Below, in pieces: positions 10,496-62,822 of a stretch of DNA of 64,000 nucleotides. The position numbers and the translations under genes were made by a program. Position 1 is the first letter of the stretch, and every line of letters starts with the position of its first letter. The DNA is from a candidate division CSSED10-310 bacterium (lineage in GTDB: Bacteria > CSSED10-310). Where the stretch lies: assembly GCA_016931515.1 (NCBI GenBank), contig JAFGEQ010000006.1, positions 24,649-88,648 of the forward strand, in the 5' to 3' direction. The notes beneath the pieces are model-generated. The model was given only the letters and a program-made list of their open reading frames with translations, made no database searches and was not told where the DNA came from.

Positions 10496-10523
10496 AAATC
10501 AGAGTGCTGAAAGGGGATCGGTC

Positions 10524-44927: not shown

Positions 44928-45692
44928 TCATAATTCAGGTTTTTTATCAAACATCATGATGGTCATCGAATCAGCAGTTGTTCCGGAACCAGTGCTATCC
45001 CCGGTTTCCACCATTGTCAACCAGTCAGGCAAACCCAAAGCCCAACCAAATTCTGCAACTGCACCCGAAATATTCACATGCGGTTCACTCAGTATTTTCC
45101 TGATTCGCGCGGTTGTTGATAAACCGGTAATTTTGTGAAGCAAGCGAGGTAATTCCTGATTCAGTACAGGCCGTGGAAGATCGAGTTGTCCCCCGGAGAT
45201 TCTGGATCGATAGTGCTGCTCGATGCGCGGATCCGAACTGACCGTCCGAGTTGAACGGTCACGGATACGGGATTCAAGCAATTCCAGGCCGCGGACACCC
45301 AGTTGTTTCAGTTTTGCCTGTTCGAATGTATCAAGCTGCGTCGATGATCCGGATGCGTATTCAGAAGAAATTTCCCATTGATAGGAACCGATGTAATCGT
45401 TGCCGTTAAATGCGGTAAATCTCCATGCTGATTGGGTATCAACGGATAAAGCCAGCACGAACGACTGAAGCCGGTGAGCAATATCGGACGCCATATCCAC
45501 AGTCTTCTCCGGTATATTGATCAGACTGATCCAGCGCTCGGAATTCATGATGATTCGGATATCCCATACGAGTGTATCTAAATGTGATGTCCACCGACTG
45601 ACTGGCGCCAATCCCCTGCAGGCAGCCATATCGATCAATGCTTCCTGAACCTGTTTCTTCTGTCGATCCAGAATATGAACGCTTTCCAGCAT
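44928..45692 (-). CDS. hypothetical protein (254 aa)
   Basis: ORF divergent from the first GT-C-like membrane protein; no motif recognised. Confidence 0.35.
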   Translation of the reverse strand: MLESVHILDRQKKQVQEALIDMAACRGLAPVSRWTSHLDTLVWDIRIIMNSERWISLINIPEKTVDMASDIAHRLQSFVLALSVDTQSAWRFTAFNGNDYIGSYQWEISSEYASGSSTQLDTFEQAKLKQLGVRGLELLESRIRDRSTRTVSSDPRIEQHYRSRISGGQLDLPRPVLNQELPRLLHKITGLSTTARIRKILSEPHVNISGAVAEFGWALGLPDWLTMVETGDSTGSGTTADSMTIMMFDKKPEL

Positions 45693-45756: not shown

Positions 45757-47988
45757 ATGTCTCGTCTGAACTCCGGGCTCATTTCACTTGTTACTATTAT
45801 GCTGTTCGCAGCTGCCTTTTCAAAGGGATTGATCTGTGTTTTTACAAATCCGCCCTGGCAGGCTGCCGATGAGCCCATGCATCTTGAAGCCGCACTGATT
45901 ACAGGGGCGAGTTTCCCGACGTCATTTCCCCCTGACGAGACAACGGATCCGAGTTTTCAGGCACCCATTCTGCAGGTAATGAGCAACCATCGTTTTTTTC
46001 AGCGAATCGGGATACCTGAACCCATGCCTCTGCCAAAATTTTTCCGGGAAACCGTTTTTATAAGGGATGCGCCATCCAAACTCGGCCGCCAGCCTCTATT
46101 CTACCTCATCACAGGGTTGCCGGTTCATTGGATGACTTCAGGTATACTTGAAGCGCTCTATCTGTGCAGAATTATCAATCTCCTGGTGACACTTCTAGGA
46201 GCATTCTGCCTCTACATCATCTTGGGTCGACTCTACCCCGCAGCACCTCTTATCAGATTAATGGGATTGTTTTTCCTGATCACTCAACCCCTGTTCTGGC
46301 AGATGGGTTCTTCCATGACACCGGACGCGTGGAAGTTCCTGCTGATGTCGATTGGTTTTCTGTGTGTCATCGCCAGGCCGACGTCCGGATCCCGGCTGTT
46401 ATATAATCTGATTTGCATATCCTGGTTCATGGCAGTTGCTGCAACCAGTTGGACGTTGGTCCCACTGGCAGTTGTCATCTCAACTGGATTTCTACCCAAA
46501 GATTCCAACCGGTCGATTTCATCCAATCTGAAAAGGCGTATCGTCCCGCTTGCTTTTCTTGTCGCAGCCGTTCTGATTGCGTTCCTCATCTCCGATCGAA
46601 CTCTGATCTATCACGAGATGAAGCATATCGTGACAGCATTTCAAGGGCTTCCCGCAAAATCTTCAAACATCAAAACCATCGTTCAAACACTGTTTCAAAC
46701 ATACTGGACAGGATTCGGATGGTTATCCATTCCCACTAACCTCTCAACACTCCTGTTATTCAGTCTCGTCTCATCCATTGGATTCGCCGGATTGATCCGT
46801 TATTTTTGCGGCGTACGATTCAAGGGTGACTCCGATCCAATCAGGCGTATTGTAATTGTATTTTGTGTGTTGGGAGCCGGAATGGTAATTTTCCGCGCAT
46901 TATCAGATGAACCTTCCATCCAGGGCCGCTACTTTTTCCCGATACTTCCGGGCATCCTGATTGCCGGTACCAGGGGATTGTTTCTGATCCGCTCCCCTAT
47001 GATCCGCCGTGTATTCCTTTTTATTGCGGTCCTCTGCGGATTCCTTGGAGATATTGCCGCAAATACGTCCGGATGGATGCTGTTTCAACATTACGGGTAC
47101 CAGGCGATCAGTGATCCCGTCCAGGCAATGGCTCATCTGAGATGGGTCGATTCATACCCGACACGTCATGTTCTTGATTCCAGGGATCCCCAATCATCAG
47201 CATTTTTCTATAAGGGCTGGTATCCGCCGGAACCCGGAAACACTCATCGGTGGATGATGAAAGAATCGGAAACTCTCTTACCATTTGTTTCTACTCAGAA
47301 CGCTCTGATGCGAATGGAGATCAACCCATTCCTGAGTTCAGAGCAGTCTGAGATGTCTATTCAGGTTTCATTGAATGGACAGATTTTAGAAAGCAAAGAG
47401 ATTCAACCAGGATGGCGGACTTACACATTTTTTGTCAGTCAGAACGAATGGGTGGGAGGTTTGAACCGATTAGGAATATCAGCACACAACGTTGGAAGTC
47501 CATCCGATTCCGGGGAGAATTCGGACAGGCGATTCCTGTCAATCGCATTACGGAGAATTGATATTATTCCGTTGATTTACACAGGGGGCATTGATGAGAT
47601 TTTTTCCGGGTGGTTCTTTACTCCGGATATGCAAGCCCGATTGCATTTAAATGCCGGTGATCGGATAGAGGTTCTATCCGACGAAACCGGTGATTTCTTT
47701 TTTTCAACATCCGTTGACGGTCAACGATATTGGACAGAGTTAACTCCCGGAGAACAGTTCGAGTTCGATACAGCGTTCAGAATCTCCCGGATCGAGTTCG
47801 ATCAGGCCAGACCGAATCAAGCGGTCGAAATTTTTCGTTCGTTTCAGCAATCGATTGGAATGCTGCCGGAGGGGTTAAGCGACGTGTACTTTCATCTTTA
47901 TTTATTTGCTGTCTGGCTGCTCATATACAGCATATCCGTCGTTTTTTTATTAGTAGCTTATGCATATTCCAGACGCTTGACCCTTTGA
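45757..47988 (+). CDS. GT-C-fold polytopic membrane protein (PMT/ArnT-like putative glycosyltransferase) with C-terminal soluble domain
   Basis: Multiple TM helices in first ~430 aa, DEP motif in first predicted loop (AADEPMHLEAA) analogous to the DE motif of ArnT/PMT enzymes; family assignment tentative. Confidence 0.5.
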   Translation: MSRLNSGLISLVTIMLFAAAFSKGLICVFTNPPWQAADEPMHLEAALITGASFPTSFPPDETTDPSFQAPILQVMSNHRFFQRIGIPEPMPLPKFFRETVFIRDAPSKLGRQPLFYLITGLPVHWMTSGILEALYLCRIINLLVTLLGAFCLYIILGRLYPAAPLIRLMGLFFLITQPLFWQMGSSMTPDAWKFLLMSIGFLCVIARPTSGSRLLYNLICISWFMAVAATSWTLVPLAVVISTGFLPKDSNRSISSNLKRRIVPLAFLVAAVLIAFLISDRTLIYHEMKHIVTAFQGLPAKSSNIKTIVQTLFQTYWTGFGWLSIPTNLSTLLLFSLVSSIGFAGLIRYFCGVRFKGDSDPIRRIVIVFCVLGAGMVIFRALSDEPSIQGRYFFPILPGILIAGTRGLFLIRSPMIRRVFLFIAVLCGFLGDIAANTSGWMLFQHYGYQAISDPVQAMAHLRWVDSYPTRHVLDSRDPQSSAFFYKGWYPPEPGNTHRWMMKESETLLPFVSTQNALMRMEINPFLSSEQSEMSIQVSLNGQILESKEIQPGWRTYTFFVSQNEWVGGLNRLGISAHNVGSPSDSGENSDRRFLSIALRRIDIIPLIYTGGIDEIFSGWFFTPDMQARLHLNAGDRIEVLSDETGDFFFSTSVDGQRYWTELTPGEQFEFDTAFRISRIEFDQARPNQAVEIFRSFQQSIGMLPEGLSDVYFHLYLFAVWLLIYSISVVFLLVAYAYSRRLTL

Positions 47989-48089
47989 GTGTTGAATGCT
48001 AGTGTTGGCTGCCTGAGTTTAGTGGGCTTAATTCAGACGAATTTGCCTGATGTGCAAGTATACCGGGTTGATAGGTAAGGAGAGGTAAA

Positions 48090-50396
48090 GTGAGAAATTT
48101 ATCTTTTGTCCTGCTTGCAGTGATGATTGCACTGCTGATTGGCTGCTCAGAGGGTGAGCGGGGACCCAAAGAATTCGATGTTCAGATTACTACCCAAAAA
48201 CTCGAAGACGGTCAGATATCTTTCAGTGCTGAAGTCGATGAAACAGTGAAGGGTGCATTAACCTATCAGTGGGATTTTGGAGATGCTACCACTTCTCCTT
48301 TAATTTCTCCGGTTCATCAATACACTGAATCAGGTCTTTTCCCGGTTACGGTTTCCGTAGTGGACTCCGAAGGCAACTTCGGTTCGGATCATCTCTTCTG
48401 TCGCAATGGTTTGACGATCGTTATCTGGATTCCCTGGGTTGCTATCATTGGATTATTGCTTGCACTTGTTTTTTATGTATGGATCAGGAAGCTTCCGGTC
48501 GGAACCGAGAAGATGAGGGAACTTTCCGAGCATATCCATCGTGGTTCGATGGTGTTCCTTAAACGAGAAAGCAGCTACCTGTACCGGTTTATCATAATCG
48601 TGTTTATTCTCCTTCTTTTTATTGGTTATCGCACGGCATTAGCGTTTTTGGGCGGCGCGATCTGTTCGATGCTGGCTGGATTGATCGGGATGATCGCTGC
48701 TACCCGCGCGAATGTTCGTACGGCTGAAGCGGCGCGTTCAGAGGGTTTATCACGAGCCCTTTTCGTGGCTTTCCTAGGCGGGGAAGTCATGGGCCTTTCG
48801 GTCGCGTCCCTGGGATTGCTTGGAGTGAGTCTGATCTTCCTGGTATTCGGCGATCCCAATCATTTCCAATACATCAGCGGATTCGCCATGGGAGCGAGTT
48901 CGATTGCTCTATTTGCCAGGGTTGGCGGAGGAATCTACACAAAGACAGCGGATGTAGGGGCAGATCTGGTTGGTAAGATCGAAGCAGGCATTCCGGAAGA
49001 TGATCCACGGAATCCGGGAGTTATCGCGGATAATGTCGGCGATAATGTCGGCGATGTTGCCGGAATGGGTGCAGATATTTTTGAGTCATACGTTGGATCT
49101 ATTGTTGCGACAGTAGCTCTGGGTGCAACAATGATCGCCAATGCCTATCAATATATGTTGTATCCGCTCGTGGTTGCCATGTTGGGTCTAATCGCTTCAA
49201 TCATTGGATTCGCTTCGATGAGGTTGTTCACTCATAAAGGTCCGGCGGCAGTGTTACGACTCTCGACCTATGTAGCCGCAGGTATCATGATAGTGACGTC
49301 TTTTTTCGCAGCCGTTTTCATGCTGGGGACAGGAAATGGTTTTCTGATCTGGCTGGCAATGGTTTTTGGATGTCTTTGCGGTGTTCTGATCGGTTTGATT
49401 ACTGAGTATTACACGTCGGGGAAACCCATCCGCACGATCGCCAAAAACTCCGAAACCGGTGCAGCAACAAATATTATCACCGGTCTGGCGGTAGGAATGG
49501 AATCCGTTGTTTTACCAGTTCTCACAATATGCATTGCAATTCTCATCGCATATTGGCTTGGTGGTCTGTATGGGATAGGAATCGCTGCAGTCGGGATGCT
49601 CGCGACCACCGGTATTACAATGAGTGTCGATGCATATGGACCCATTGCGGATAATGCCGGGGGAATTTCAGAGATGGCAGGTCTTGGACCCGATGTACGC
49701 AAGATTACCGACAGTCTGGATTCCCTGGGAAACACGACTGCTGCAATCGGCAAAGGGTTTGCGATCGGCAGCGCCGCTCTTACTGCTCTGGCTATGTTTT
49801 CAGCTTATACGCAGGCAGTTGTGATCAATATCAGTGATTTCAGCATCAACATCATGGACCCGATCGTTGTAACAGGTCTTTTTATAGGCGGCATGTTGCC
49901 TTTCTTCCTTGCCTCGAAAACAATGACCTCGGTGGGACGGGCAGCGAACAAAATGATTTCGGAGATCAGACGACAATTCAAAGAAATCCCTGGACTGATG
50001 GAAGGCACTTCGGAGCCCGATTTTGAACGTTGCATTGATATTTCGACCCAGAGTGCACTCCACGAAATGGTAATCCCGGGAGTAACGGCAGTACTCGCGC
50101 CTGTTTTGATCGGATGGATACTCGGTCCGGAGGCACTTGGTGGGGCGTTGGCGGGGGCAACGATAACAGGAGTGCTTCTGGCTCTGATGATGGCCAATGG
50201 CGGCGGTGCCTGGGATAATGCCAAGAAGTGGATAGAGGAAGGCAATCTGGGCGGAAAAGGTTCCGAAGCTCATAAAGCGGCAATAGTCGGTGACACGGTT
50301 GGAGATCCGTTCAAAGACACATCGGGGCCTGCCATGAATATCCTGATCAAATTAATGAGTGTCGTTTCGCTGGTCATCGCTCCGCTATTCGGTTAA
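48090..50396 (+). CDS. hppA: membrane-bound proton/sodium-translocating pyrophosphatase with N-terminal lipoprotein signal and PKD domain
   Basis: [22 protein letters not shown] and other H+-PPase signatures; GTG start with AAGGAGAGG RBS; residues ~1-20 signal with lipobox LIGC; residues ~25-110 PKD-like ([11 protein letters not shown]...[21 protein letters not shown]). Confidence 0.85.
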
Positions 50397-50442
50397 CGGG
50401 TGCCAAGACGCCAGGTTCCAGGATGATCGGATCAGCAGACGC

Positions 50443-51564
50443 ATGACACACACAATCTTCTACATTACACCTTCCGTGGAGTTGCTTGGAGCTCGCATCA
50501 GTCTGGTAGAATTGCTGCGTCACCTGGATCGAACACGGTATCGTCCGGTGGTTATTTGTCATCGATATGGTCCATTGATTGATAAGTTGAAGGAGATAAA
50601 CGTTGAGACTCGGATCGTTCGGTTTGGTAATTGGCGAAAACCAAAATACTGGCCGCTGATCCCTTTCGCGATAAGAGAACTAGTGGCACTTGGCAAAATT
50701 GAAAAAGCAGCGCTTTTTCACAGCAATGAATTCTGGTCGTTTCCTTACGCACGTTTAGCAGCCAATCGCCTGGGTATTCCCGCTTTTTCACATTTCCGCT
50801 GCAGCCGGACACCTCAACAGATTCCTCCCAGAAAAATCAAAAATTATTTGCTGCCCAAAGCGGATATGTTGATCGCTGTTTCCAGGGCTCAGCAGCGACT
50901 ATTTCGGGATTTTCCTGAGATGGCGGATCGAATTACAGTCATTCATAACGGAGTGGATCTTGAGCAGTTCGAACGAGCTGACGGAATTGGTTTCAGGCGT
51001 GAAATCGGAATGAATTCCGATGGACATCTGTTTGGTATCGTCGGTCCGGTCAGTCCTCATAAAGGCATTGAAGAGTTTATCCGTTCAGCAAAGATCATTT
51101 GCGACGCACTTCCCAACGCACATTTTGCGGTGGTCGGTCCTGAACGTCCACATGCATTTGCCGATACAATGCAAACTCTCGCCCAATCATTAAATATCGA
51201 AAAGAACGTGGTTTTCACTGGTTTTCGGATGGATATCCCGCAAATCATGTCGGCGTTTGATGTGCTGATCACACCATCCAGAGTAGAAGCGTTCGGACGG
51301 GTTATCCTCGAAGCGATGTCTGCAGGTACTCCAGTAGTGGCATCGCAGGTTGGAGGAATTCCAGAGATAATCGATCGACCTGAAATTGGCGTTTTAGTAC
51401 CACCGGAATCCCCTGAGAAACTGGCCGCAGCGGTATTGAGTCTAATTGCCGATCCGGAGAAAAAAAAGCGTATGATTGAGATCGCACGCGAACATGTCCG
51501 GAAGAATTTCACGATTGCCAGGCACACACGACAAGTGGAGCAAATTTACGAAAAATTTTTATAA
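50443..51564 (+). CDS. glycosyltransferase, GT4 family (group 1)
   Basis: GT-B C-terminal domain motifs, EAMSAGTPVVASQVGGIPEII; ATG 50443 chosen. Confidence 0.8.
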   Translation: MTHTIFYITPSVELLGARISLVELLRHLDRTRYRPVVICHRYGPLIDKLKEINVETRIVRFGNWRKPKYWPLIPFAIRELVALGKIEKAALFHSNEFWSFPYARLAANRLGIPAFSHFRCSRTPQQIPPRKIKNYLLPKADMLIAVSRAQQRLFRDFPEMADRITVIHNGVDLEQFERADGIGFRREIGMNSDGHLFGIVGPVSPHKGIEEFIRSAKIICDALPNAHFAVVGPERPHAFADTMQTLAQSLNIEKNVVFTGFRMDIPQIMSAFDVLITPSRVEAFGRVILEAMSAGTPVVASQVGGIPEIIDRPEIGVLVPPESPEKLAAAVLSLIADPEKKKRMIEIAREHVRKNFTIARHTRQVEQIYEKFL

Positions 51565-51651
51565 AAAACCTAGCTGAGAGTCGTTTTTACTCAGGAATGA
51601 TTGATTTTGCCTCCTTGATCGCATTACCTTATTAATTTGGCGAGGATGATT

Positions 51652-53808
51652 ATGTCCCAGATAGATGCGATAATTGAGGGCTACAAGGCATATTCGAACA
51701 ATCCGGAAGCCGAGGAAAGAATCCGGTTGGCTTATCAGATTGCCCGTGACGCGCATGCCGGTCAATTTCGTAAATCCGGTGAACCATACATTGTTCATCC
51801 GCTTGCAGTTGCACAAATACTGGTTGAGCTGAAAATGGATTCCGCATGTATTTGTGCTGCACTTCTCCATGATACGATTGAAGACACGGATATAGAACTG
51901 GAAACGATCCGGCAACAACTGGGACGAGAAATCGCTGTAATGGTCGATGCACTGACAAAGATCAAGACAAATGCCCTGGCTGAAAAAATTCACAAGGAGC
52001 AGGAACGTGCCGACACGATGCGGAAAATTGTTCTCGGAATGGCAAAAAACGTTCGTGTGATTATCGTCAAACTGGCGGATCGATGGAACAATGTACGAAC
52101 ACTTCAATTTATGAGCCTGGAAAAGCGGAAGCAGATTGCGCGGGAAACGATGGCCATCTATGCACCGATTGCTGATAGACTGGGGCTGTCCATTATTCGG
52201 CGGGACCTTGAGGATCAATCATTCAGTCATCTTGATCCGAAAAACTACCAGACCTACCAGCGGCGACTGGCGACGAGTAAAAGTTTTCTGGAGAACGACA
52301 TTAATGATCTGAAGCTTCAGGCAGAGGAAATTCTGGCTCGCCATGGTTTGAAGGTACGTATTTATGAGCGGTTCAAAACGGCCTTTTCACTGTATCAACG
52401 AGCCCTGCAAAAACTCCCTGCCCACATGCTTCATCTCGCGGTAATTACGACCTCCGATCTATCCTGCTATCAAGCACTGGGCATTCTGCACGAGAACTAC
52501 CGTCCGTTACCCGGAACAACAATAAAGGATTACATCGCAATTCCGCGGACGAACGGATATCAGGCTTTGCACACCTATGTTCTTTTCCGTGAGAATGTTT
52601 ACCCTATACAAATCCGGTCTGAAAAAATGGAGCAGGTAGCGATGTATGGGATTCTGCAGAGCGGAAATGAGAGCAGTCGTTCCCGATATCGCACCTGGAT
52701 AAAGCGTCTCAAAGAGCTGGTCCAGGATGAGGCGGATGCCAGGGATCTGATGAAGGGAATCGAAGATCTTGCAGCGCAGGATAAAATCTATGTTTGTACG
52801 CCACAGGGAGATTACCTGGGGTTCCCCCGTGATGCTGTTGTGTTGGATTTTGCATATCGAATTCACACGGACATTGGACACCGCTGTCAAGGTGCATTGA
52901 TGGATGAAAGACCCGCTGGAATTTTCGATAAGCTTGTTGATGGAGCCATGGTGGAAATTATTCATTCCGATGAGTATCAGATTCGCCCTGATTGGCTGGA
53001 TAATGTCAGGACACCCAGAAGTCGAACGGCCATAAGGAACTGGATCGAAACACGCAAACGAATCCGCAGTCGGGAATTCGGTGAACGATTACTGAATCTG
53101 GAGTTGGAGCGTCAGAAAATCGATTTGAGGAATCTGATCATGCAGGCGCGATTCGCCAGCATTCTGCAAGATATGAATGTTGCCGACACTGACGAGTTGT
53201 TTTTCAAAGTTGGAAGAGGAATTATTACAATAAAGACCGCCATGAAAAGCCTTCTCGATGAAGAGGAATACCGAAAATATACATCGCGAGGAACATCCCA
53301 GGTTTCGCGACTCTTCAGTTACTTTCTCAGTCGACCTAAAGTTGATGATGTTTTTGAGATAACGGATATCCACGATCCTTATCTGAAGTTTTCTCAATGC
53401 TGTAATCCATTGCACGGCGAAGAGATTGTCGGAATTTTATCCATTCAACACGGTCTCTCCGTTCACAGGATGGATTGTCCGCAATTAAAAACGCATCAAC
53501 GTGAAGATCTTCAATTGATTAAACTGGTCTGGAATACCGAAGACACTCGTCAGTCTCCTATTACTTTCAGACTGGTATGCAATAAAAAGGACGGGGTGCC
53601 ATCAACTATCTTTAACACACTGGAATCACATGAGGTTATTATACGCCACTTTCAACTCTGGCCGGAAGAAACTCAGATACTGATTCTCGTCGAGGTTATG
53701 TCCAACAGTGCGCAATACTCGGAACGAATTCAATCCATTCTTCAATCCATCAAAGGTGTTGAAAAAGTCATTCGTACCCAGTCTTTCGTGAAAGGCAAAC
53801 GGCCATGA
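51652..53808 (+). CDS. rel: bifunctional (p)ppGpp synthetase/hydrolase, RelA/SpoT family
   Basis: HD domain (HPLAVAQIL...LHDTIEDT), synthetase domain, TGS and ACT regions; ATG 51652 chosen (GAGG 6 nt upstream). Confidence 0.85.
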   Translation: MSQIDAIIEGYKAYSNNPEAEERIRLAYQIARDAHAGQFRKSGEPYIVHPLAVAQILVELKMDSACICAALLHDTIEDTDIELETIRQQLGREIAVMVDALTKIKTNALAEKIHKEQERADTMRKIVLGMAKNVRVIIVKLADRWNNVRTLQFMSLEKRKQIARETMAIYAPIADRLGLSIIRRDLEDQSFSHLDPKNYQTYQRRLATSKSFLENDINDLKLQAEEILARHGLKVRIYERFKTAFSLYQRALQKLPAHMLHLAVITTSDLSCYQALGILHENYRPLPGTTIKDYIAIPRTNGYQALHTYVLFRENVYPIQIRSEKMEQVAMYGILQSGNESSRSRYRTWIKRLKELVQDEADARDLMKGIEDLAAQDKIYVCTPQGDYLGFPRDAVVLDFAYRIHTDIGHRCQGALMDERPAGIFDKLVDGAMVEIIHSDEYQIRPDWLDNVRTPRSRTAIRNWIETRKRIRSREFGERLLNLELERQKIDLRNLIMQARFASILQDMNVADTDELFFKVGRGIITIKTAMKSLLDEEEYRKYTSRGTSQVSRLFSYFLSRPKVDDVFEITDIHDPYLKFSQCCNPLHGEEIVGILSIQHGLSVHRMDCPQLKTHQREDLQLIKLVWNTEDTRQSPITFRLVCNKKDGVPSTIFNTLESHEVIIRHFQLWPEETQILILVEVMSNSAQYSERIQSILQSIKGVEKVIRTQSFVKGKRP

Positions 53809-54653
53809 TAGATTCTCTCGGTCCAGAGCAACTCTCCTCTCTCTGCTCTGCGGCGCAACCGATTGTCCGAGAGGCCGGTAATCTAGTAACCGATTATTTC
53901 AACTCCCCTTTGGCCATTGAATATAAAAGTCGATTCGACATGGTCACCGAAGCGGACAAGGCATCCGAACGCTTCATTATCAATGCTCTTAATCAGTTAA
54001 CTCCTGGAATACCGATCATTGCGGAAGAATCTTCAGGAGAATTGGATGGAAGCGTTTTCCCGAATTCCTGGGTATGGGTCCTGGATCCCCTGGATGGAAC
54101 CACTAATTTTGCCCATGGTTTTCCTCATTTCGCTATTTCACTGGCCCTCCTCCATTCCGGTCATCCCCGGCTGGGTCTGGTGTATGATCCGTTGAAAGAA
54201 GAAATGTTTACGTCCGTTATGAACCAGGGATGCTTTCTGAATAATGTTATAGTGGCAGTGTCAGGCACCCGATCGCTCGAACGGAGTCTTATCGCGACCG
54301 GTTTCCCATATCGCGTGCGAGAGCTGAAACAAAACAATCTGATGGAATTTTGTGCTTTTCGTCTGGAATGCCAGGGGATAAGACGATTTGGTGCAGCGGC
54401 ATTGGATCTGGCCTATGTCGCAGCAGGCAGGCTGGACGGTTTCTGGGAACGATGGTTAAAACCATGGGATACTGCTGCAGGTATTCTGATGGTCGATGAA
54501 GCGGGTGGTTGTGTGAGTCGTTTTGACGGATCCGAATATTCTGTCCTTGATCCCGATATTGTCGCCTCCAATAACCTAATACACGCGATGATGCGGAATG
54601 TTCTGAACCAACCACTACCTGATTTGCCCCAATTTCCCCGGCTCGCAACATGA
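53805..54653 (+). CDS. inositol monophosphatase family protein (SuhB/CysQ-like)
   Basis: WVLDPLDGTTNFAHGFP and EESSGE motifs; ATGA overlap with rel. Confidence 0.8.
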   Translation: MIDSLGPEQLSSLCSAAQPIVREAGNLVTDYFNSPLAIEYKSRFDMVTEADKASERFIINALNQLTPGIPIIAEESSGELDGSVFPNSWVWVLDPLDGTTNFAHGFPHFAISLALLHSGHPRLGLVYDPLKEEMFTSVMNQGCFLNNVIVAVSGTRSLERSLIATGFPYRVRELKQNNLMEFCAFRLECQGIRRFGAAALDLAYVAAGRLDGFWERWLKPWDTAAGILMVDEAGGCVSRFDGSEYSVLDPDIVASNNLIHAMMRNVLNQPLPDLPQFPRLAT

Positions 54654-57600
54654 CGGCACACCGACACATATGTATGCGCATGATTCATCTTTCAGGTAAA
54701 CTTCTGAATCTGCTCGTTTTTCGAACCGTCCTGAGCCTTCCTTTTTTCTCCGGACATCTCTCGCCCCAATTCGCTTCGCTGTATTTGTATCTAATTCCGA
54801 TTGTCCTGGCTCTTCAGAGTCTTCTAGTGACTGCAATCCCTTCAACGAAAGCCCGGAAATATTGGTATGCGGACTCATTAACGATTATTGGAGTTGAACT
54901 GAGTACGCTCCTGATATTGGGATTCGCAGCCCGTAATTATCTGCTTCCGATGACCGGTTTGTTAATTGTTGTTATGACCTTTTTCCGTTCGCTGATACTT
55001 ATCGGATACATCGCGATGCTTCCCCACCAATCCGTTTCAGTTTTGCGGCGATCCGTATATCTGTCACTCGCGATTTGCCTTTTACTATCACCGCTGTCCT
55101 CCTGGAGAGAGATCAACCGCCCTCTTATGGGCGATGAACCATACTACCTGCTGATCGCATACAGTATCCTCCACGATCATGATATTGATCTGGTTAATAA
55201 TTACCGAAACGGAGATTCTTTAACATTTACGGATCAGCGATTGGAACCTCAGACTTTTGATAATTGGCGAAACGGCCGACTGATGTCACGACATCCGCCA
55301 ATGCTCCCAGTTTTTTTACTGCCTTCCTTCATTGTATTCGGTGTTCGAGGTGCCCTATTCTCACTAATACTTTTCACGGCATTATTGGCAGCAGGTTTGT
55401 ACAGATTGCTGACGCAATTCGATATATCTGACGATTTATCAGTGTGGATTTCTGCAATGACCGTTCTAACCGCACCCATGATCTTTTACTCCCAGGTTCT
55501 TTTCACCGAACTTCCAGCTGCCACGCTGGCTGTTATCACAGTATCCTGTGTATTGGATCTTAATCAGCGCAAGCGCTATCCCATTCTGCTTGCGTTAATC
55601 TGTACACTTGCAGCAACAGCGCTGAAAACGCGTTTTGCTTTGCTTTGCTTTGCACCACTGATTGTCAGCCTTGTTCTGAATATCAAATTGCGCCGCAGAC
55701 GATGGGGTTGGTTCGCCCTGGTTGGCCTATTACTGGTACTAATCGCCATCATTAATTCGACTTATTACGGATCACCACTTGGTCGTTATGTTCTATCTGA
55801 ATTAACTCGGCTTACGAATTGGAGGCTTTTCCGCGGTTTGCTTGGGACTCTTTTCGATCAACAATATGGATTGCTCCCGATAAATCCCATATTCGTTTTT
55901 GCGATTCCGGGAATGTTTTTTCTTTATAAATCAACCGGTTTGCCCAGGTTCCTGATATGGATTTCCGCCTGGTTGCCCACTTTTTTATTAATCGCTCTTT
56001 ATGCGGAGTTAACAGGAGGCATCTGTCCGAAAGGACGATTTCTCGTGGCGTGGGTGCCCTTTCTCGCAGTCCCCATCGCTTTTAGTCTATTTAATTTAAG
56101 AGGGTTTTTCTGGCGGAGTATAATCAGTGCCTCTCTTATCGCAACCTTACTGAACGTGTTCATCCAGCAGATTGATCCGAAATTACAGATTGTCTATCCT
56201 GGATCCTCTGACGGATTCCTTTCACGCATAAGTGGAATCCTCGGGATGGATTTAATCGGATGTATCCCGTCGTTTGACCGGGTTGAAGAGGGTTTGCTGC
56301 GGAGTGGACTCATCGCGTTTTTTGCAATCATGTGTCTCACGGTATTGGCGATCAGATACGGAGTCCGACCGTGTGCATCTTCTGAGCATTCATTACGGCA
56401 AAGAGGTTCCTTATCGTTTATCGTATTGGTGTTCCTGTCGATTTGTTCTTTGAGTGCTCTATGTCTGTTCCCTTTACAATCTCCATGGATGCATCCGGAG
56501 GATCCGGTATTCTCCACAACTGGCTCAGCCAGAGTTTTCTGGGAAGAACCTCGAAATTGGGATGATTGGAGTATTCGAACCGCATCACCGTACAGAAGCG
56601 GCATCCGGCTGCACCAAAACGACTCGCTGTTACGTGCGATCCGGCTCCGGTACCCGATCAGTGCATTGGATTCAGCGGCTGCGCTTGAGATTATTGCCAG
56701 AGGGAGTTATCCCGGACCGGAGATGCCGATTTTGGAAGTGGGTGTGGGTGATCATATACTGGGACACGTGACAGTGAAATCCAACGAATTCGAATCCTAC
56801 GTGGTCCCCTGGCCATATGGAGCATTGGATATACTTCCTCCCCTACGGTTAAAACATAGTGATTCAAGTGCAGGTGGCACTTATATTGATATCGATAAAA
56901 TCCGTCTTAGAAAATGGGAGGAGCCTTGGCCGATTATGCCCCCTAAACGGGATGATCCTTTTCCAATCTCATTTGGATCACTGACTGTACAGACAATAGA
57001 CCTTTCACCTGAGCCGGTACAACAAGGATATCCGTTTTCGATCAGCGCAAAGGTTGTTTTTGAAAATGAGACCCCACAACCGGATTTGGGTCTCCTGTTC
57101 ATCAGCGACACACGAGCTTATATCACTCCTCTTCAAAATCTTCGGTCAGAGGAACAGGTCGATTACACAATCACGATTCCTCCTCAATTTGGCAGCGGTA
57201 TATTTGAAGTGCTGGCTCAGGCCAGAGATCCCGATTCCGGTCAGTTCATTGCACCGGAAGGAACTCATTTTTTCAGGTGTGGGAAAAGAGCGTGGCTAGG
57301 CCGTATTATAGTTGATCCGGGACCTGTAGTTTCACAGGACAACTGGATCGAACGAATATCCGCAAAAACAGCGATTCCAGCCAATCATATTATACAGATT
57401 GACCGGAGTTGGCATCTATCGCGAAATTCCGATGTTGCGATTAAACTGGATCAGGAGATATCGGCCAATGGTCTGGTTCTGATCAGTAACATCTCATCTG
57501 TCTTTGAAGAGATACCATGGGACACATTCATCGGAATCATCGAGTTAGATAGCACTGAAAGCAACGTGGAATATCAGATTCAATTGGGAAAAGAGACAGC

Positions 57601-57844
57601 GGAAGCCATGTATGAATTTGGTGGCAAAGAAGTGCGTCTGGCTCATCCTCAGGCTCCGATTATTGAACGACAACCCAAGATCATTCACTGGCCGGTCGAG
57701 TTTGAGGGCATATCCTATAACGAAGTGATCTATTACTCCCGACTGGATTGGGGCAGGGATCTGCCAATTCGTGAAATCAGAGTCCGATCCCTAGATTTTC
57801 CTGGTGTCTGGAATACGTATGCTTTAGCATTGGTTCTACCATGA
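54650..57844 (+). CDS. giant GT-C-fold membrane protein (PMT/ArnT-like) with ~500-aa C-terminal extracytoplasmic domain
   Basis: ~12 TM helices; loop motif GDEPYYLLIAYSILHDHDIDLVNNY approx 55130-55200; ATGA overlap with upstream IMPase gene. Confidence 0.5.
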   Translation: MTAHRHICMRMIHLSGKLLNLLVFRTVLSLPFFSGHLSPQFASLYLYLIPIVLALQSLLVTAIPSTKARKYWYADSLTIIGVELSTLLILGFAARNYLLPMTGLLIVVMTFFRSLILIGYIAMLPHQSVSVLRRSVYLSLAICLLLSPLSSWREINRPLMGDEPYYLLIAYSILHDHDIDLVNNYRNGDSLTFTDQRLEPQTFDNWRNGRLMSRHPPMLPVFLLPSFIVFGVRGALFSLILFTALLAAGLYRLLTQFDISDDLSVWISAMTVLTAPMIFYSQVLFTELPAATLAVITVSCVLDLNQRKRYPILLALICTLAATALKTRFALLCFAPLIVSLVLNIKLRRRRWGWFALVGLLLVLIAIINSTYYGSPLGRYVLSELTRLTNWRLFRGLLGTLFDQQYGLLPINPIFVFAIPGMFFLYKSTGLPRFLIWISAWLPTFLLIALYAELTGGICPKGRFLVAWVPFLAVPIAFSLFNLRGFFWRSIISASLIATLLNVFIQQIDPKLQIVYPGSSDGFLSRISGILGMDLIGCIPSFDRVEEGLLRSGLIAFFAIMCLTVLAIRYGVRPCASSEHSLRQRGSLSFIVLVFLSICSLSALCLFPLQSPWMHPEDPVFSTTGSARVFWEEPRNWDDWSIRTASPYRSGIRLHQNDSLLRAIRLRYPISALDSAAALEIIARGSYPGPEMPILEVGVGDHILGHVTVKSNEFESYVVPWPYGALDILPPLRLKHSDSSAGGTYIDIDKIRLRKWEEPWPIMPPKRDDPFPISFGSLTVQTIDLSPEPVQQGYPFSISAKVVFENETPQPDLGLLFISDTRAYITPLQNLRSEEQVDYTITIPPQFGSGIFEVLAQARDPDSGQFIAPEGTHFFRCGKRAWLGRIIVDPGPVVSQDNWIERISAKTAIPANHIIQIDRSWHLSRNSDVAIKLDQEISANGLVLISNISSVFEEIPWDTFIGIIELDSTESNVEYQIQLGKETAEAMYEFGGKEVRLAHPQAPIIERQPKIIHWPVEFEGISYNEVIYYSRLDWGRDLPIREIRVRSLDFPGVWNTYALALVLP

Positions 57845-60800
57845 CGGTCGATTCAAACTGCAGATTTTTAAGACTTCTTGCAGCATCAATAGCGCATGTT
57901 ATTGCTGCAATTGTTCTGTTTTTGACTCTGAAAGTTATTAATCTATCACAGATTACTTCTACGTCTTTATGGGCTCACATGCTGACATGGCGCTACCCTC
58001 TACTCCTGGCAACATCTTCCATTCTGATTCTTTTCGTGAGTCGAAACTTAACCCGGGACCGACGGAATCTTATCATCAGGTTTGATACGGGTGTTTATGC
58101 ATTGACGCCAGTGGTTGTGATTCTGCATTCTATGGCTCCCTATAGCGGCGATCCGCAACTACTTTTCGGAAGTCTTTATGGGGGAGTTTTCATCTTAAAG
58201 TCCGTATTGATCGGTATCACGCTGCTGATTTCACAGCGCAAACGCCCCGTCACAGCCTCAATGTTATTCCTGATCATGTTATGGTTCTTCGGATTTGTCG
58301 GACTCTGGTATGGTCCCGTCCATCACATTCATGGCGATGAACCTCATTACCTACTGATGACTCACAGTATTGTTCATGATGGTGATCTTAATCTGATCAA
58401 CCAGTATCAGGAAAAAACGTATCTTACCTATCGATTGGATGAACTTCAGCCCAAAATATCAGATATCAAGGAACCAACGAAAATTTACTCAAGAGGACTT
58501 GGTGCTACCTTTCCGATGCTTCTGGCACCGGCATATGCATTGGGAGGCCTGCCCGGCACCCAGTTCTTCATAATTCTCTGCTCTACATTGCTTATCGTAC
58601 AGCTTTATCTGTTGTTGATGAGATGTGTACCGGATTCGCAACTCGCCCTGCTATCTGTTTTACTCATTGCAACAAGCAATCCTGTCTTGACTTACTCTTC
58701 CCTGATCTACCCGGATATTCCGGCCGCCTTATGCATCGTCATCGCTCTAAGAGTTCTGCAGACCCACCCGTTATCACAGGCCGGCAGATCGGTTCCGACT
58801 TGGATTTTTCTTCTTTCGGCAGCCTTGTTATTCCTTAAATTCAGGTATTTTATTCCTGTCATCCTTCTAATGATTCCAGTTCTAAATCGCGAATGCCGAA
58901 AAATGCGAAATGGTATCTCTCTCCTGATTGCACTTCTGTTGCTTGCGGGAACATATGTTATCGGAGATAGATGGTTCTTGGACGGCGACCTTTTTTCCAA
59001 CCGATTCGGCGGCATTGCTCAAATAAAAAATTATCTGCCGGGGATGCAGAGTCTGAAGGTTCTGCCGGGGTTACTGCTTGATCAAGAGAGTGGATTTATG
59101 TTCCACGCGCCGCTGTATTTTTTAATAATAGCCGGTATATCGCTATACAGGGGTCCGCGAAACAGCCTTTACTGGTTCAGTGTTCTTGGAATTCCGATGA
59201 CTGCAATTTCCCTGTTCGGTCACTTCGCTTGGCACTGCCTGCCAACTCCTCCCTTGCGGTATATGCTTCCCGTTCTTCCACCCACGGCTTTCCTTCTGGC
59301 GTCAGCATTGAAGAACTGGAAAAATCGCAGTTTTGTTTTCCGCACACTGTCCGCTGCATGCATTGTTTCATCATGGCTGACAGCCGGTATCCATTTCATA
59401 ATGCCGGATTGGCAGAATAATCTCGCCGATGGATCAGCCCGGTTTCTTGAAGCGCTGGCCACTGCCATCCGAATACCAGTTCCTCTTTTTTTCCCGTCCG
59501 CCATCCGACCCGGAACAGCATTATGGGTCTGGTTGATACTGATGATACCCTGCCTGATTATTCTGACCGCTCCTTTTGCACGGGATGCCCGGAAGAGTCC
59601 AGGTTATTTTCAGCCGTCGGTTATGATCACGATTCTTCTGGGAGTAGCAGTCATTTATTGCGGCACGATGAGTCATGCGGTTGTCAGGACGTACCATCCT
59701 GAAGACAGATGGTGGAATCAGCCCGATGGCGGCACTTATTTTCCGGAGAACCGTGATCCGTTCTTCCACCAGGAAATCTCTTACGGATGGCAACTCCGCT
59801 CCGGTGAATCATTGAGAATTCCACTTCGAATCAAGGATACCAGAGCGACAGGGATTATTCGATGTCGACTCATTGATTCGTGGAGACCTCATCAGTTAAC
59901 GATTAAACTGTCGGATCAATCGACCGAAAGAATCAATGTTACTTCGAAACACTGGACAGAATACGCTTTTAAGATTCCTCCGGACGCGCATTTGAATACC
60001 ATCGATATTGCTTCAATCGGGAAGGGCGAACATGCTGTTGCCATTGATTCGGTCACAATCGTCAAGCGGTCGGACGCGCTCTTCTCCCTATGGAACAATT
60101 TAGCTGCACTCAGCCGCAGGGCTAAATGTCATCGATTCACCATGGCTTGTGACTACAGATCGATGCTGGTCGCTGATGGGGACCCCTGGTACGAAGTGGC
60201 ATCACGATTCCGACCCGGGGCTAGGCCGAGGGTATCTCGCGCAGCGGAAGCGGATCCATTGCCACCGGGTTTTTTGAATCAGATCTTTCAGGATGCGGTG
60301 AATGCCGGTTGGGACTCTGCATCTCATATTGAAAAGCTGTTCCAATTCTCTTTTTGCAGCGAGCTTCAAGGAGAGTCACTTCGCGACTACGCAATAAACG
60401 GTTTACTGACGGCACATCAACCGGCTGTTTTTCTATTAATCACACTGGCTGAAAAATACCCTGACGATGAAACAATTCAGTTTTATCTACCGATCGCGTA
60501 TTACTTGCGGGGAAACACCTACAAAGCGGTAGACATGCTGGATACTTTGTTAATTACGGGAAAATATTATCCGATGCAACTGACAAAACCCGCCTCTCAT
60601 CTAGAAGTATCGAATCCATTGTATTCCCTCTTTAGCGATCTGGAAAACGATCCTGAATATATAGAGATCGCTCGGATGGTAAATAACCGTCATTTGGCTA
60701 AAAGTATTCAGTGCTATCATAATGGGGCTATTCGAGAAGCAGCGCTTTACTTTGACGACTACTATCTTTCGGATTTTGGTATTTTCATGGAAAGTGTTCC

Positions 60801-61167
60801 GGACATTTCACAGGAATATATTTCCACCGTGTTCGGATATGCATCGCGTATTCATACAATCCATGTGCGGCAATTGGTAGAAGAGGCTCTTGAAGCTCAC
60901 CACCCGAAGATCGCCTATGCAGCGGCCACATATGGATTACGCATGAAACCCAAAGATCCGGAACTTCGTTTTGGCGAGGCAAGGGCGTTGTTCCATGAGA
61001 GAGATTTTATTCAAGCCCGGCAGATATGCCTTGAAAATTCAAGTTTGTATCTGGATGATGATCGTTCAAGGTGGTTGCTGGAACAGATCATGATACACAT
61101 GAAACAAGAGGGCGATCGACTGGGAGGGAAAAGCGATAGCAAGCCGGGAAGCAGAGTCATTTCATAA
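57841..61167 (+). CDS. giant GT-C-fold membrane protein, paralog of the preceding gene, with C-terminal TPR-like helical domain
   Basis: Loop motif GDEPHYLLMTHSIVHDGDLNLINQY approx 58333-58410, clearly paralogous to upstream gene; ATGA overlap. Confidence 0.5.
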   Translation: MTVDSNCRFLRLLAASIAHVIAAIVLFLTLKVINLSQITSTSLWAHMLTWRYPLLLATSSILILFVSRNLTRDRRNLIIRFDTGVYALTPVVVILHSMAPYSGDPQLLFGSLYGGVFILKSVLIGITLLISQRKRPVTASMLFLIMLWFFGFVGLWYGPVHHIHGDEPHYLLMTHSIVHDGDLNLINQYQEKTYLTYRLDELQPKISDIKEPTKIYSRGLGATFPMLLAPAYALGGLPGTQFFIILCSTLLIVQLYLLLMRCVPDSQLALLSVLLIATSNPVLTYSSLIYPDIPAALCIVIALRVLQTHPLSQAGRSVPTWIFLLSAALLFLKFRYFIPVILLMIPVLNRECRKMRNGISLLIALLLLAGTYVIGDRWFLDGDLFSNRFGGIAQIKNYLPGMQSLKVLPGLLLDQESGFMFHAPLYFLIIAGISLYRGPRNSLYWFSVLGIPMTAISLFGHFAWHCLPTPPLRYMLPVLPPTAFLLASALKNWKNRSFVFRTLSAACIVSSWLTAGIHFIMPDWQNNLADGSARFLEALATAIRIPVPLFFPSAIRPGTALWVWLILMIPCLIILTAPFARDARKSPGYFQPSVMITILLGVAVIYCGTMSHAVVRTYHPEDRWWNQPDGGTYFPENRDPFFHQEISYGWQLRSGESLRIPLRIKDTRATGIIRCRLIDSWRPHQLTIKLSDQSTERINVTSKHWTEYAFKIPPDAHLNTIDIASIGKGEHAVAIDSVTIVKRSDALFSLWNNLAALSRRAKCHRFTMACDYRSMLVADGDPWYEVASRFRPGARPRVSRAAEADPLPPGFLNQIFQDAVNAGWDSASHIEKLFQFSFCSELQGESLRDYAINGLLTAHQPAVFLLITLAEKYPDDETIQFYLPIAYYLRGNTYKAVDMLDTLLITGKYYPMQLTKPASHLEVSNPLYSLFSDLENDPEYIEIARMVNNRHLAKSIQCYHNGAIREAALYFDDYYLSDFGIFMESVPDISQEYISTVFGYASRIHTIHVRQLVEEALEAHHPKIAYAAATYGLRMKPKDPELRFGEARALFHERDFIQARQICLENSSLYLDDDRSRWLLEQIMIHMKQEGDRLGGKSDSKPGSRVIS

Positions 61168-61187: not shown

Positions 61188-62822
61188 ATGGATTATTTTG
61201 AGCTGAAAAAATCTGTTGAGTGCCTTCATAGTATATTAACCGGCGCACATCTGATGAATGTATTTCAGCCTGAAACCCGATGTATGAATTTTATAATCAG
61301 GACACGGTTCAAGACCTCAGGGGATCGAATTCTGCAATGTGAATGCATGAATCAGAAAGCCGGTATATTCCTGCTTGAAGACACGCGTCAAGGTGACCAG
61401 GCTGCTACACTATTGGCTCGTTCCTTCCGGAAAAAAATGGTTGGCGCCACTATCCAGTCGATCGAGATGCCTTTTCCTGACCGGGTAGTCATGATCCGGT
61501 TTTCGTTAGCGGAATGGAGAAATGATAGAGAATTATGGATTGAGCTATATGGATCCAGAAGCAACATCACATTGGTTGATACATCCTCGCGCGTTATTCT
61601 CGATTGCCTGAGTAAATTTCCTGAAAACACACAGAAACACCCTCTGCGCATGCCGGGGCGACTGTTCGTGAGCGCATGGGAACACTCCGGACACCGGGTG
61701 CAGCCATTACAGGATTTGGTGCGTGTTCCAGATTTGTGGCCGAATGATCCCCAAACAGAAACCGTTGCTGCCAGGCTTAGATCCGGATTCGCTCCAATGA
61801 CGCCTGAATTAAGCAGAACTTTAGCCGGCATCAAGATAGCAGAAGGAACAGGTGCCGCGATAAATCACCTCCGTACCTTCTTCAATGGGATCGAAACACT
61901 TTTTTGTTCAAATCACGATGATGCAATAAAATATTTGATATCTTTAAGTCATCGACAATCTGATCACAATGCGGAAGAACGTCTGGCAAAGAACGTTAAC
62001 CGGCTTGCGAAAATAATCTCCACAGCGCAGCGCAATTGCGAAAAGAAAATAAATGCGCTGGAAATGGATCTGTCGCACATTCCCGATCCGACCACGCTTC
62101 GCAGAAGAGCCGATTTACTCGCTATCAATTTTCATTGTCTTCGTACCGGGATGGGACAAGTGGAGGTCGATGATATTTACGATTATCCTGTTTGTAAGTT
62201 AACGATTGAACTGGATCCGGAGAAGAATCCGAGTGATAATTTAAAGCTCTTGTTCAGGAAGGCTGCGAAAGCGGAACGTGCGGGGCCTCGTATTAAAGAG
62301 CGGTTGGCGATTTTGCGCAAAGAATGGACCTCTTTAGATTCATTGCTGGAAAAAATAAAAGCAATCGGATCACCGGATGAGTGCCGGGAGGTCGAAAAAC
62401 AGTTGAGGGCAACCGGTTTTTCACTGGAGCAATCGTTTCATAATCAACGGGATATCATGCTCACCGGCAAACCTTTCCTTCGCTTCACGTCACCGGACGG
62501 GTGGAGGGTCCTGGTCGGACGTAATGCCAGGGAGAACGATCTGTTGAGTTTTAAAGAATCGACACCGGAAGATTTTTGGCTTCATGCGCAGGGATATCAT
62601 GGGGCACATGTAATTATCCGCAATCCAGGAAAACAGGATATACTCCCGAGTAGAACGGTAGAGTTTGCTGCATCTCTTGCCGTACGTTTTTCCGGGGCAA
62701 GAGGAGAGAAAGCTGTGACTGTCATATGCACAAAGAGGAAATATGTCCGGCGAGTACCCGGAAACCGGCCGGGCCTTGTCAGGGTGACACGGCATGAAAC
62801 TGTGATGATCGACTCCGTTTGA
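61188..62822 (+). CDS. NFACT-family protein (RqcH/FbpA-like ribosome quality control / fibronectin-binding homolog)
   Basis: C-terminal NFACT-R/DUF814-like motif FWLHAQGYHGAHVIIRN; 544 aa. Confidence 0.55.
   Translation: MDYFELKKSVECLHSILTGAHLMNVFQPETRCMNFIIRTRFKTSGDRILQCECMNQKAGIFLLEDTRQGDQAATLLARSFRKKMVGATIQSIEMPFPDRVVMIRFSLAEWRNDRELWIELYGSRSNITLVDTSSRVILDCLSKFPENTQKHPLRMPGRLFVSAWEHSGHRVQPLQDLVRVPDLWPNDPQTETVAARLRSGFAPMTPELSRTLAGIKIAEGTGAAINHLRTFFNGIETLFCSNHDDAIKYLISLSHRQSDHNAEERLAKNVNRLAKIISTAQRNCEKKINALEMDLSHIPDPTTLRRRADLLAINFHCLRTGMGQVEVDDIYDYPVCKLTIELDPEKNPSDNLKLLFRKAAKAERAGPRIKERLAILRKEWTSLDSLLEKIKAIGSPDECREVEKQLRATGFSLEQSFHNQRDIMLTGKPFLRFTSPDGWRVLVGRNARENDLLSFKESTPEDFWLHAQGYHGAHVIIRNPGKQDILPSRTVEFAASLAVRFSGARGEKAVTVICTKRKYVRRVPGNRPGLVRVTRHETVMIDSV

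Follow-up and report, generated by a model that had tools for sequence, protein, structure and literature searches.

Two tandem paralogs of a large family without a Pfam model and a DUF2142 protein as predicted GT-C-fold membrane proteins in candidate phylum CSSED10-310

The window analyzed here is a 64,000-nucleotide stretch of contig JAFGEQ010000006.1, which belongs to a metagenome-assembled genome (MAG) of candidate phylum CSSED10-310, a rare uncultured sister group of Acidobacteriota that is predicted to be Gram-negative (PMC8248873). Three genes in the window encode polytopic membrane proteins, here called A, B and C, each of which has an early long loop with a conserved Asp-Glu(-Pro) and a large C-terminal non-membrane domain. 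An earlier reading, made from the sequence without database searches, had proposed that all three resemble GT-C glycosyltransferases. Open reading frames (ORFs) and their translations placed the genes, and the DEP motif of each, where that sequence-only reading had put them:

45757-47988, plus strand: protein A, a DUF2142-family GT-C-fold membrane protein of 743 amino acids
54650-57844, plus strand: protein B, 1064 amino acids, a GT-C-fold membrane domain followed by predicted periplasmic beta-sandwiches
57841-61167, plus strand: protein C, 1108 amino acids, a paralog of B with a GT-C membrane domain, a beta-sandwich and a TPR region

Protein A is identical to NCBI record MBN1878933.1, labeled 'DUF2142 domain-containing protein', and protein C to MBN1878939.1, labeled 'hypothetical protein'. 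Protein B carries the same 'hypothetical protein' label and is identical to MBN1878938.1 except at its start, since the NCBI call is 1056 amino acids long and begins 8 codons inside ours. The NCBI gene call for A is likewise 743 amino acids, a start we preferred because all orthologs conserve residues 1-40 and the DUF2142 model covers this stretch. A 703-amino acid call for A (P0163, Logan; start Met41, nucleotide 45877) was rejected, as it would delete helix 1 and the DE motif.

The motifs, single residues and repeats discussed below lie at these positions:

45868-45876, plus strand: D38-E39-P40 of A, a putative catalytic acidic pair in the predicted first extracytoplasmic loop
55130-55204, plus strand: putative catalytic-loop motif of B, G161-D-E-P-Y-Y-L...S172...D176-x-D178...N-N-Y185 (amino acids 161-185, after the fifth helix)
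55856-55858, plus strand: D403 of B in an 'FDQxxG' loop, family-invariant or nearly so
56036-56038, plus strand: R463 of B, family-invariant or nearly so, which aligns with R391 of A
58333-58407, plus strand: putative catalytic-loop motif of C, G165-D-E-P-H-Y-L...S176...D180-x-D182...N-Q-Y189 (amino acids 165-189)
60733-61140, plus strand: TPR repeats of C, amino acids ~965-1100, from comparison of an ortholog profile with PDB

Protein A is an ordinary member of DUF2142. It passes the Pfam model (PF09913) with 58.1 bits against a gathering cut-off of 30.1, the match spanning amino acids 24-399 and profile positions 4-394 of 395, and a precomputed DUF2142 hit was present in five of its nine orthologs. 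The N-terminal membrane domain (amino acids ~1-445) is followed by a beta-sandwich region (~455-684), which forms about two beta domains in the AlphaFold2 (AF2) model, and by a C-terminal membrane helix (~705-737). The loop of A reads NPPWQAADEPMHLEAA, with 'AADEPMH' at amino acids 36-42. A bare DEP tripeptide is not significant by itself and could arise by chance, but conservation lifts this one above chance: N31, P32, P33, Q35, A37, D38 and E39 are invariant in the nine orthologs, which share 30-47% identity with A. P40 varies (DEV or DET in three of the nine), and a second D-E-P at amino acids 384-386 is unconserved. The Arg of a QGRY motif, R391, is also invariant.

The loop sequences of the other two proteins are GDEPYYLLIAYSILHDHDIDLVNNY in B and GDEPHYLLMTHSIVHDGDLNLINQY in C. 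Across 163 relatives of B and C, the GDEP residues, Y166, L167, S172, D176, D178, D403, G407, P413, R463 and P540 (B numbering) are 95-99% conserved, and in another set, of 40 diverse members, 12 of these positions show no variation, among them G161, D162, E163, P164, L167, S172, D176 and D178. This conservation bears out the D-x-D that the sequence-only reading had noted after DEP in both large proteins. The N-x-Y that it had listed as well is present in both, but in the family it is a majority consensus only ('NNY'). Every family-invariant residue is kept in C (D166, E167, D180, D182, D414 and R473), and none of 19 C orthologs, the most distant at 28% identity, departs from the loop motif of C. 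At residues 217-221 (~58489-58503) the C clade has an invariant S-R-G-L-G in place of the S-R-H-x-P of the wider family. The B/C family is recognized by its loop motif GDEPxYL-x4-S-x3-DxD, the five hydrophobic helices that precede this loop, a late Arg that does not vary and a CBM-like beta-sandwich.

Sequence comparison indicates that B and C are an old tandem paralog pair to which A is related at superfamily level only. BLASTP aligned B and C at 27% identity over 385 amino acids (E 8e-19), within the membrane domain only, and the start of C overlaps the stop of B within an ATGA. Orthologs of B (35-48% identical to B) and of C (28-57%) fall into two distinct series whose members share contigs, so the duplication predates the sampled diversity of the phylum. 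BLASTP found no similarity between A and either B or C. A profile-profile comparison of A with B/C gave 81% probability (E 1.2e-5) in a stretch limited to the last membrane helices and the first beta-sandwich, and this alignment pairs R391 of A with R463 of B. Because this is the only link and BLASTP shows none, A is better described as a superfamily relative than as a paralog in the usual sense, which narrows the earlier claim of three paralogs to the B-C pair.

All three proteins have the large C-terminal domains that had been described for them, with beta-sandwiches in A, B and C and a TPR region in C. In the AF2 model of B, a membrane domain (amino acids 1-609) is followed by about three beta-sandwich domains (~612-1064). 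Protein C has a membrane domain (~1-611), one beta-sandwich (~615-760) that is homologous to the first sandwich of B, and, at its C-terminus, a region with TPR repeats. The profile built from 19 C orthologs matched TPR proteins in PDB over five stretches (E 2.7e-20); C alone gave weak matches to Pfam TPR_19 and TPR_16, which were clearer in its orthologs. The accessory sandwiches resemble CBM36, CBM6 and CBM35.

The anatomy of the loop was read from the AF2 model of B, which has five membrane helices up to residue 156 and then a 60-residue loop opening with G161-D-E-P. DSSP assignment of the model shows the preceding membrane helix at 131-156 and, within the loop, short helices at 163-176 and 182-192 and a hairpin before the next membrane helix. 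GT-C enzymes have this layout in their first external loop, the one with the catalytic Asp. Of 252 family members, 174 also have five hydrophobic segments ahead of the motif, an odd number that would put the loop outside if the N-terminus is inside. Counts of Lys and Arg in loops on the N-terminal side versus the other side were 17 versus 8 for A and 24 versus 9 for C by crude hydropathy, and about 11 versus 2 for the short loops of B when model helices were used. The hydropathy helix caller undercounts (14 helices in B compared with about 17 in the model), and its topologies are indicative only. These positive-inside counts, together with the analogy of fold, suggest that the DE loops of A, B and C face the periplasm, and the C-terminal domains are expected on the loop's side of the membrane.

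The predicted structures have a GT-C-fold polytopic membrane core. Foldseek matched it to GT-C structures including ArnT, ALG12 and AglB with probability 1.00, and Pmt2, PglB, STT3B, ALG9, AftB, GPI mannosyltransferase I, ALG3, AftD, AftA and Pmt1 were also named among the matches, as was GAB1, a subunit of the glycosylphosphatidylinositol (GPI) transamidase that is not a transferase. An Asp-Glu in loop 1 is a GT-C hallmark and is essential in yeast Pmt1 (D77/E78), M. tuberculosis Pmt and ArnT (D55) (PMC8698208). The same acidic position has been aligned across ArnT, Pmt1, EmbA and the TMTC proteins, in an analysis that also notes a conserved late Arg, described for Glyco_transf_22, STT3 and TMTC (PMC7801869). 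Conserved acidic residues occupy the first long loop of A (D38/E39) and of B (D162/E163 and D176/D178). With A passing DUF2142, C homologous to B and an Asp-Glu at the GT-C catalytic-loop position, these results support the view that A, B and C are GT-C-fold proteins, as the sequence-only reading had supposed.

Sequence models were less telling. A passed DUF2142, and of the family models named with the earlier proposal TPR gave weak matches on C, but the PMT_2 (PF13231), Glyco_transf_22, Glyco_transf_39 and Glyco_transf_83 hidden Markov models had no match on B or C. C gave a sub-threshold match to Pfam PMT (PF02366; 16.3 bits versus 22.7, E 0.007, 85 residues), and among the 40 diverse family members no Pfam model matched the membrane domain, apart from one sub-threshold PMT match. 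Among curated sequence models, NCBIfam NF047440 (LA_3751/LA_3752 putative glycosyltransferase) alone detects B and C, with 58.3 bits for B (6.2e-16) and 21 bits for C (1.2e-4), scores far under its 200-bit cut-off; it weakly matches 37 of the 40 diverse members (best E 6.9e-19). One family member is labeled 'Glycosyltransferase RgtA/B/C/D-like domain-containing protein' in UniRef, which indicates that automated pipelines occasionally see a PMT_2 resemblance.

A profile search of 1.84 billion cluster representatives (50% identity) showed that B and C belong to a huge, unstudied branch of the GT-C superfamily with a recognizable motif and an unusual N-terminal extension. It returned 19,317 proteins at E <= 1e-3, 9,498 at <= 1e-10 and 3,294 at <= 1e-30, and a motif scan of GTDB species-representative genomes found at least 565 confirmed loci. 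The typical family length of 690-940 amino acids implies that the common form is a GT-C domain with one or two sandwiches and that B and C are long variants. The matches listed were nearly all from MAGs, of Thermoanaerobaculia, Vicinamibacterales, other Acidobacteriota, Methylomirabilota, FCPU426, KSB3, Chloroflexota and Acidimicrobiia. The family is thus mostly found in Acidobacteriota and allied uncultured phyla, and it has no Pfam model.

The gene order in the window is A, membrane pyrophosphatase, GT4, RelA/SpoT, an inositol-monophosphatase (IMPase)-family gene, B, C, NFACT/RqcH and UDP-glucose dehydrogenase, with two further groups of genes bearing on possible acceptors far upstream:

9707-13328, plus strand: two adjacent pilin-like (N_methyl) proteins with a type IV pilin-like methylation motif
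13917-17399, minus strand: a 1160-amino acid protein with four Big_5 Ig-like domains, a lamin-tail domain (LTD) and a CopC-like region
44928-45692, minus strand: a 254-amino acid ORF divergent from A, with no Pfam or NCBIfam match, which looks soluble and has no hydrophobic segments
48090-50396, plus strand: membrane pyrophosphatase (Pfam H_PPase, 1.6e-267), for which the best NCBIfam models are sodium-translocating
50359-51564, plus strand: GT4 (GT-B fold) cytoplasmic glycosyltransferase (Glycos_transf_1 2.9e-40, Glyco_transf_4 4.3e-21)
51637-53808, plus strand: RelA/SpoT, with an ATGA stop/start overlap with the IMPase-family gene
53805-54653, plus strand: IMPase-family gene, with an ATGA stop/start overlap with B
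61188-62822, plus strand: NFACT/RqcH-like protein of 544 amino acids (ribosome-rescue or fibronectin-binding family), 20 bp downstream of C
62974-64000, plus strand, cut by the window end: UDP-glucose/GDP-mannose dehydrogenase family gene, whose translation starts MKIAVIGTGYVGLV

Three ATGA overlaps (RelA/SpoT-IMPase, IMPase-B and B-C) suggest that RelA/SpoT, the IMPase-family gene, B and C are probably co-transcribed as one unit. The RelA/SpoT-IMPase-B order and its overlaps also occur at CSSED10-310 loci L001 and L003. Such a unit would place a stringent-response enzyme together with two putative envelope glycosyltransferases. Three other CSSED10-310 genomes, with C orthologs 54%, 32% and 31% identical to C, share the entire order, which past the window end continues to a gene for a TPR Ser/Thr kinase and one for an FHA protein. 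The positions of GT4 and of the NFACT/RqcH-like gene are kept at L001-L003, which also carry UDPG_MGDP_dh domains at the orthologous downstream position. Gene order at the locus is thus deeply conserved, yet glycan-related and housekeeping functions are mixed within it.

The GT4 gene scored under every NCBIfam equivalog cut-off, and the listed GTG probably lies upstream of its true start. Ahead of its GTG start the pyrophosphatase gene has a good ribosome-binding site, and the protein has an N-terminal extension of ~110 amino acids in which a lipoprotein-type signal ('LLIGC') is joined by a PKD domain (E 7.7e-11). The PKD fusion is also found at L001 and L003 and is absent at L002; a PKD domain on a pyrophosphatase looks unusual.

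Beyond CSSED10-310, four hand-picked loci had no conserved neighborhood. Among 80 GTDB loci, roughly 7-10 have a GT2 gene immediately downstream in the same orientation, and about a quarter have GT2 or GT4 within 3 kb. Single-linkage clustering of the neighbors of these 80 loci merged GT2 with GT4, and an upstream membrane protein with the family itself through fused ORFs; these were separated by hand. The GT2 and GT4 neighbors in other phyla are consistent with a role in glycan assembly and define no pathway. The upstream protein, a Pfam-less polytopic membrane protein of ~570 amino acids, is directly upstream of the family gene in ~13 Acidobacteriota loci of the 80 (for example L062:4004-5716, L031:3839-5551, L041:2765-4471 and L083:3656-5530), its stop often touching or overlapping the start of that gene. 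At L078:4486-7755 and in P0020 (1107 amino acids, family profile from residue 373) the two appear to be fused, and the upstream protein has neither a DEP motif nor BLASTP similarity to A, B or C.

Given the fold, the conserved motifs and the domain composition, we consider it likely that A, B and C are inner-membrane GT-C glycosyltransferases that use a polyprenyl-phosphate sugar donor, transfer the sugar in the periplasm by means of the Asp-Glu pair and hold the acceptor with their C-terminal domains. By analogy with other GT-C enzymes, the sugar would be taken from its polyprenyl-phosphate carrier at the periplasmic face of the membrane. Transfer would be carried out by the invariant Asp-Glu pair that opens the first long periplasmic loop, assisted by the DxD, the later Asp (D403) and the late Arg (R463). 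The invariant set (DE, DxD ten residues later, SRH-P at the loop end, D403 and R463) would fit an active site that accommodates a lipid-phosphate sugar and an acceptor. The acceptor would be held by the C-terminal periplasmic domains. The CBM-like sandwiches of A and B may point to a glycan or glycolipid acceptor, as in Emb/AftD, while the beta-sandwich and TPR of C may point to a protein partner or protein acceptor, as in TMTC/TfpW. B and C, which are probably co-transcribed, may work as a pair.

Several observations weigh against this assignment. The B/C family has no member of known activity, donor or acceptor, and the functions of DUF2142 proteins are themselves hypothesized (PMC12599335). 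No Pfam model matched B at all, and searches of all PDB chains with the sequences of A, B and C and with the B-family and C-ortholog profiles found no GT-C enzyme, giving chance matches only, plus TPR proteins for C. The GT-C assignment of B and C therefore rests on predicted structure. A comparison of the B/C-family profile with E. coli ArnT (NC_000913) gave no alignment (probability 0.2%), a result that says little because the template was a single sequence. In the AF2 model of A, the DE-motif loop (amino acids 36-107) is of low confidence, and the placement of D162/E163 of B at the canonical active site is inferred from the order of secondary structure elements in a predicted model. A His conserved in 83% of the family (H215 of B) is Leu in C and its orthologs, and this His-to-Leu change may mean a different donor or reduced activity for one member of the pair.

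Genomic context adds a further point on that side. The GT4 gene and the (truncated) UDP-glucose dehydrogenase gene are real neighbors, and together with the gene order conserved across CSSED10-310 they count in favor of the transferase reading and lend some support to the surface glycosylation locus that the sequence-only reading had proposed. However, housekeeping genes are interleaved, and none of the 44 larger ORFs of the window, the set searched against Pfam with smaller ORFs unscanned, encodes a polyprenyl-phosphate sugar synthase, a flippase or an initiating transferase, so the proposal is weak and stands only in part. The acceptors proposed for this locus fared worse, as the pilin-like and Big_5/LTD genes are ~32-45 kb from A, B and C with unrelated genes between, and nothing links them to the GT-C genes.

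A refinement of the transferase reading, which does not exclude it, is an obligate B-C heterodimer acting on an envelope polysaccharide or glycolipid, either to elongate or to decorate it, with the CBM-like domains of B holding the growing glycan and the TPR of C docking a partner. EmbA and EmbB, which are encoded by adjacent genes, offer a precedent as a heterodimer, and the Pmt1-Pmt2 pair is another precedent. The ATGA overlap couples B and C translationally, the two are kept as a pair in all CSSED10-310 loci examined (L001-L003, L009 and L010), and both copies retain all invariant catalytic residues while their C-terminal domains have diverged to different types. PMTs are also described as acting as dimers (PMC7759382). 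Most family members in other phyla are nevertheless single genes, which implies that the family generally needs no paralogous partner, and we regard the heterodimer as possible but tentative. More doubtful still is the fuller version, in which B and C represent a distinct, undescribed family (at least 19,000 clusters and at least 565 GTDB loci, with the four-helix extension and GDEPxYL-x4-S-x3-DxD) and the obligate B-C heterodimer of CSSED10-310, co-transcribed with RelA/SpoT and the IMPase-family gene, builds an as yet unknown major envelope glycoconjugate.

Alternatively, the region could be a dedicated protein O-glycosylation locus in which the three enzymes, or at least C, modify pilin-like or Ig-like proteins. 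The architecture of C, GT-C followed by periplasmic TPR, is common to the protein-modifying TfpW (bioRxiv 10.1101/2020.04.19.049825) and the TMTC O-mannosyltransferases (PMC7801869), and the window does encode pilin-like (N_methyl) proteins and a Big_5/LTD protein. One of the pilin-like proteins is 950 amino acids, very long for that kind. But tfpW immediately follows pilA, whereas here more than 32 kb separate A, and more than 44 kb separate C, from the pilin-like genes, on a stretch rich in unrelated housekeeping genes; A and B carry CBM-like domains rather than protein-binding repeats; and no pilin neighbor recurs beside family members in other phyla, so we judge a dedicated locus of this kind unlikely. 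A further alternative is that these are GT-C folds that transfer no sugar, either as non-catalytic scaffold subunits like PIG-U/GAB1 of GPI transamidase or as glycan polymerases, ligases or transporters. This is very unlikely, since catalytic GT-C enzymes outscored PIG-U/GAB1 in both searches, and an invariant acidic pair, DxD, Asp and Arg across thousands of divergent sequences is the pattern that an active site should show; moreover, polymerizing lipid-linked repeat units would itself be glycosyl transfer from a polyprenyl-linked donor. The GT4-RelA/SpoT-IMPase-B-C string could also suggest synthesis of an inositol-containing glycolipid or glycoconjugate. In mycobacterial phosphatidylinositol mannoside synthesis, GT4 enzymes act on the cytoplasmic side and the GT-C enzyme PimE acts outside. 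The IMPase-family protein, however, scored 200.6 against an equivalog cut-off of 332 in a family that includes SuhB, HisN and CysQ functions, the GT4 protein scored 116.6 against 462.5 for MshA, and no inositol-phosphate synthase or phosphatidylinositol synthase was seen in the window. As the adjacency could also be gene order inherited within one phylum, an inositol product appears highly improbable.

Read as glycosyltransferases, B and C turn two 'hypothetical' proteins, and thousands of unlabeled relatives in soil and sediment Acidobacteriota, into proteins that can be called as having a GT-C glycosyltransferase fold, with a defined, putatively catalytic motif that mutagenesis could target. 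Little is known of the envelope glycans of Acidobacteriota, which are abundant and difficult to culture, and a large family without a Pfam model or a studied member is a reasonable first biochemical target. None of this challenges current ideas on GT-C mechanism or implies a new type of mechanism.

Among known systems, ArnT (GT83) and Pmt1/2/4 (GT39) have no significant sequence match to B or C (PMT E 0.007 for C, none for B). Their DE loop follows the first helix, whereas that of B and C follows the fifth, so four extra N-terminal helices set the B/C family apart, and the PMT MIR domain is absent from B and C, which have CBM-like sandwiches or TPR instead. The DUF2142 family includes the lactococcal WpsI/WpsJ candidates, and A falls above its Pfam threshold with full-length model coverage. 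DUF2142 proteins are polytopic, are encoded in cell-wall polysaccharide loci and have been proposed to act as an external polymerase or GT-C transferase (PMC12599335, PMC9746298). Unlike the lactococcal proteins, A comes from a Gram-negative-type phylum, has an extra beta-sandwich region of ~230 amino acids and a C-terminal membrane helix, and is not encoded in a polysaccharide cluster. The Leptospira NF047440 match on B covers amino acids 207-500 only, without the DE loop and the N-terminal helices, which marks a relative and not the same family. Its name combines two consecutive locus tags, which may denote neighboring genes as with B and C; a literature search on LA_3751 found no paper.

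TfpW, a pilin D-arabinofuranosyltransferase, and TMTC1-4 have the layout of C: the first external loop of the GT-C domain bears an acidic pair, and TPR repeats form an extracytoplasmic domain at the C-terminus. The likeness of C to TMTC/TfpW, a GT-C domain followed by an extracytoplasmic TPR domain, is one of architecture only, as C had no match to DUF1736 (TMTC) or a similar Pfam model, neither homology to TMTC/TfpW nor linkage to an acceptor gene was found, and TfpW was not compared directly. TfpW is 646 amino acids long with 11 predicted helices, and tfpW is directly downstream of pilA in every species examined (bioRxiv 10.1101/2020.04.19.049825). C differs in being 1108 amino acids long, in the beta-sandwich that separates its membrane domain from its TPR region and in lacking a pilin neighbor. 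EmbA/B/C, AftD and AftB have no sequence similarity to A-C; the Emb motif is DDx rather than DEP...DxD, and the helices before the catalytic loop of the mycobacterial arabinosyltransferases are arranged differently from those of the B/C family.

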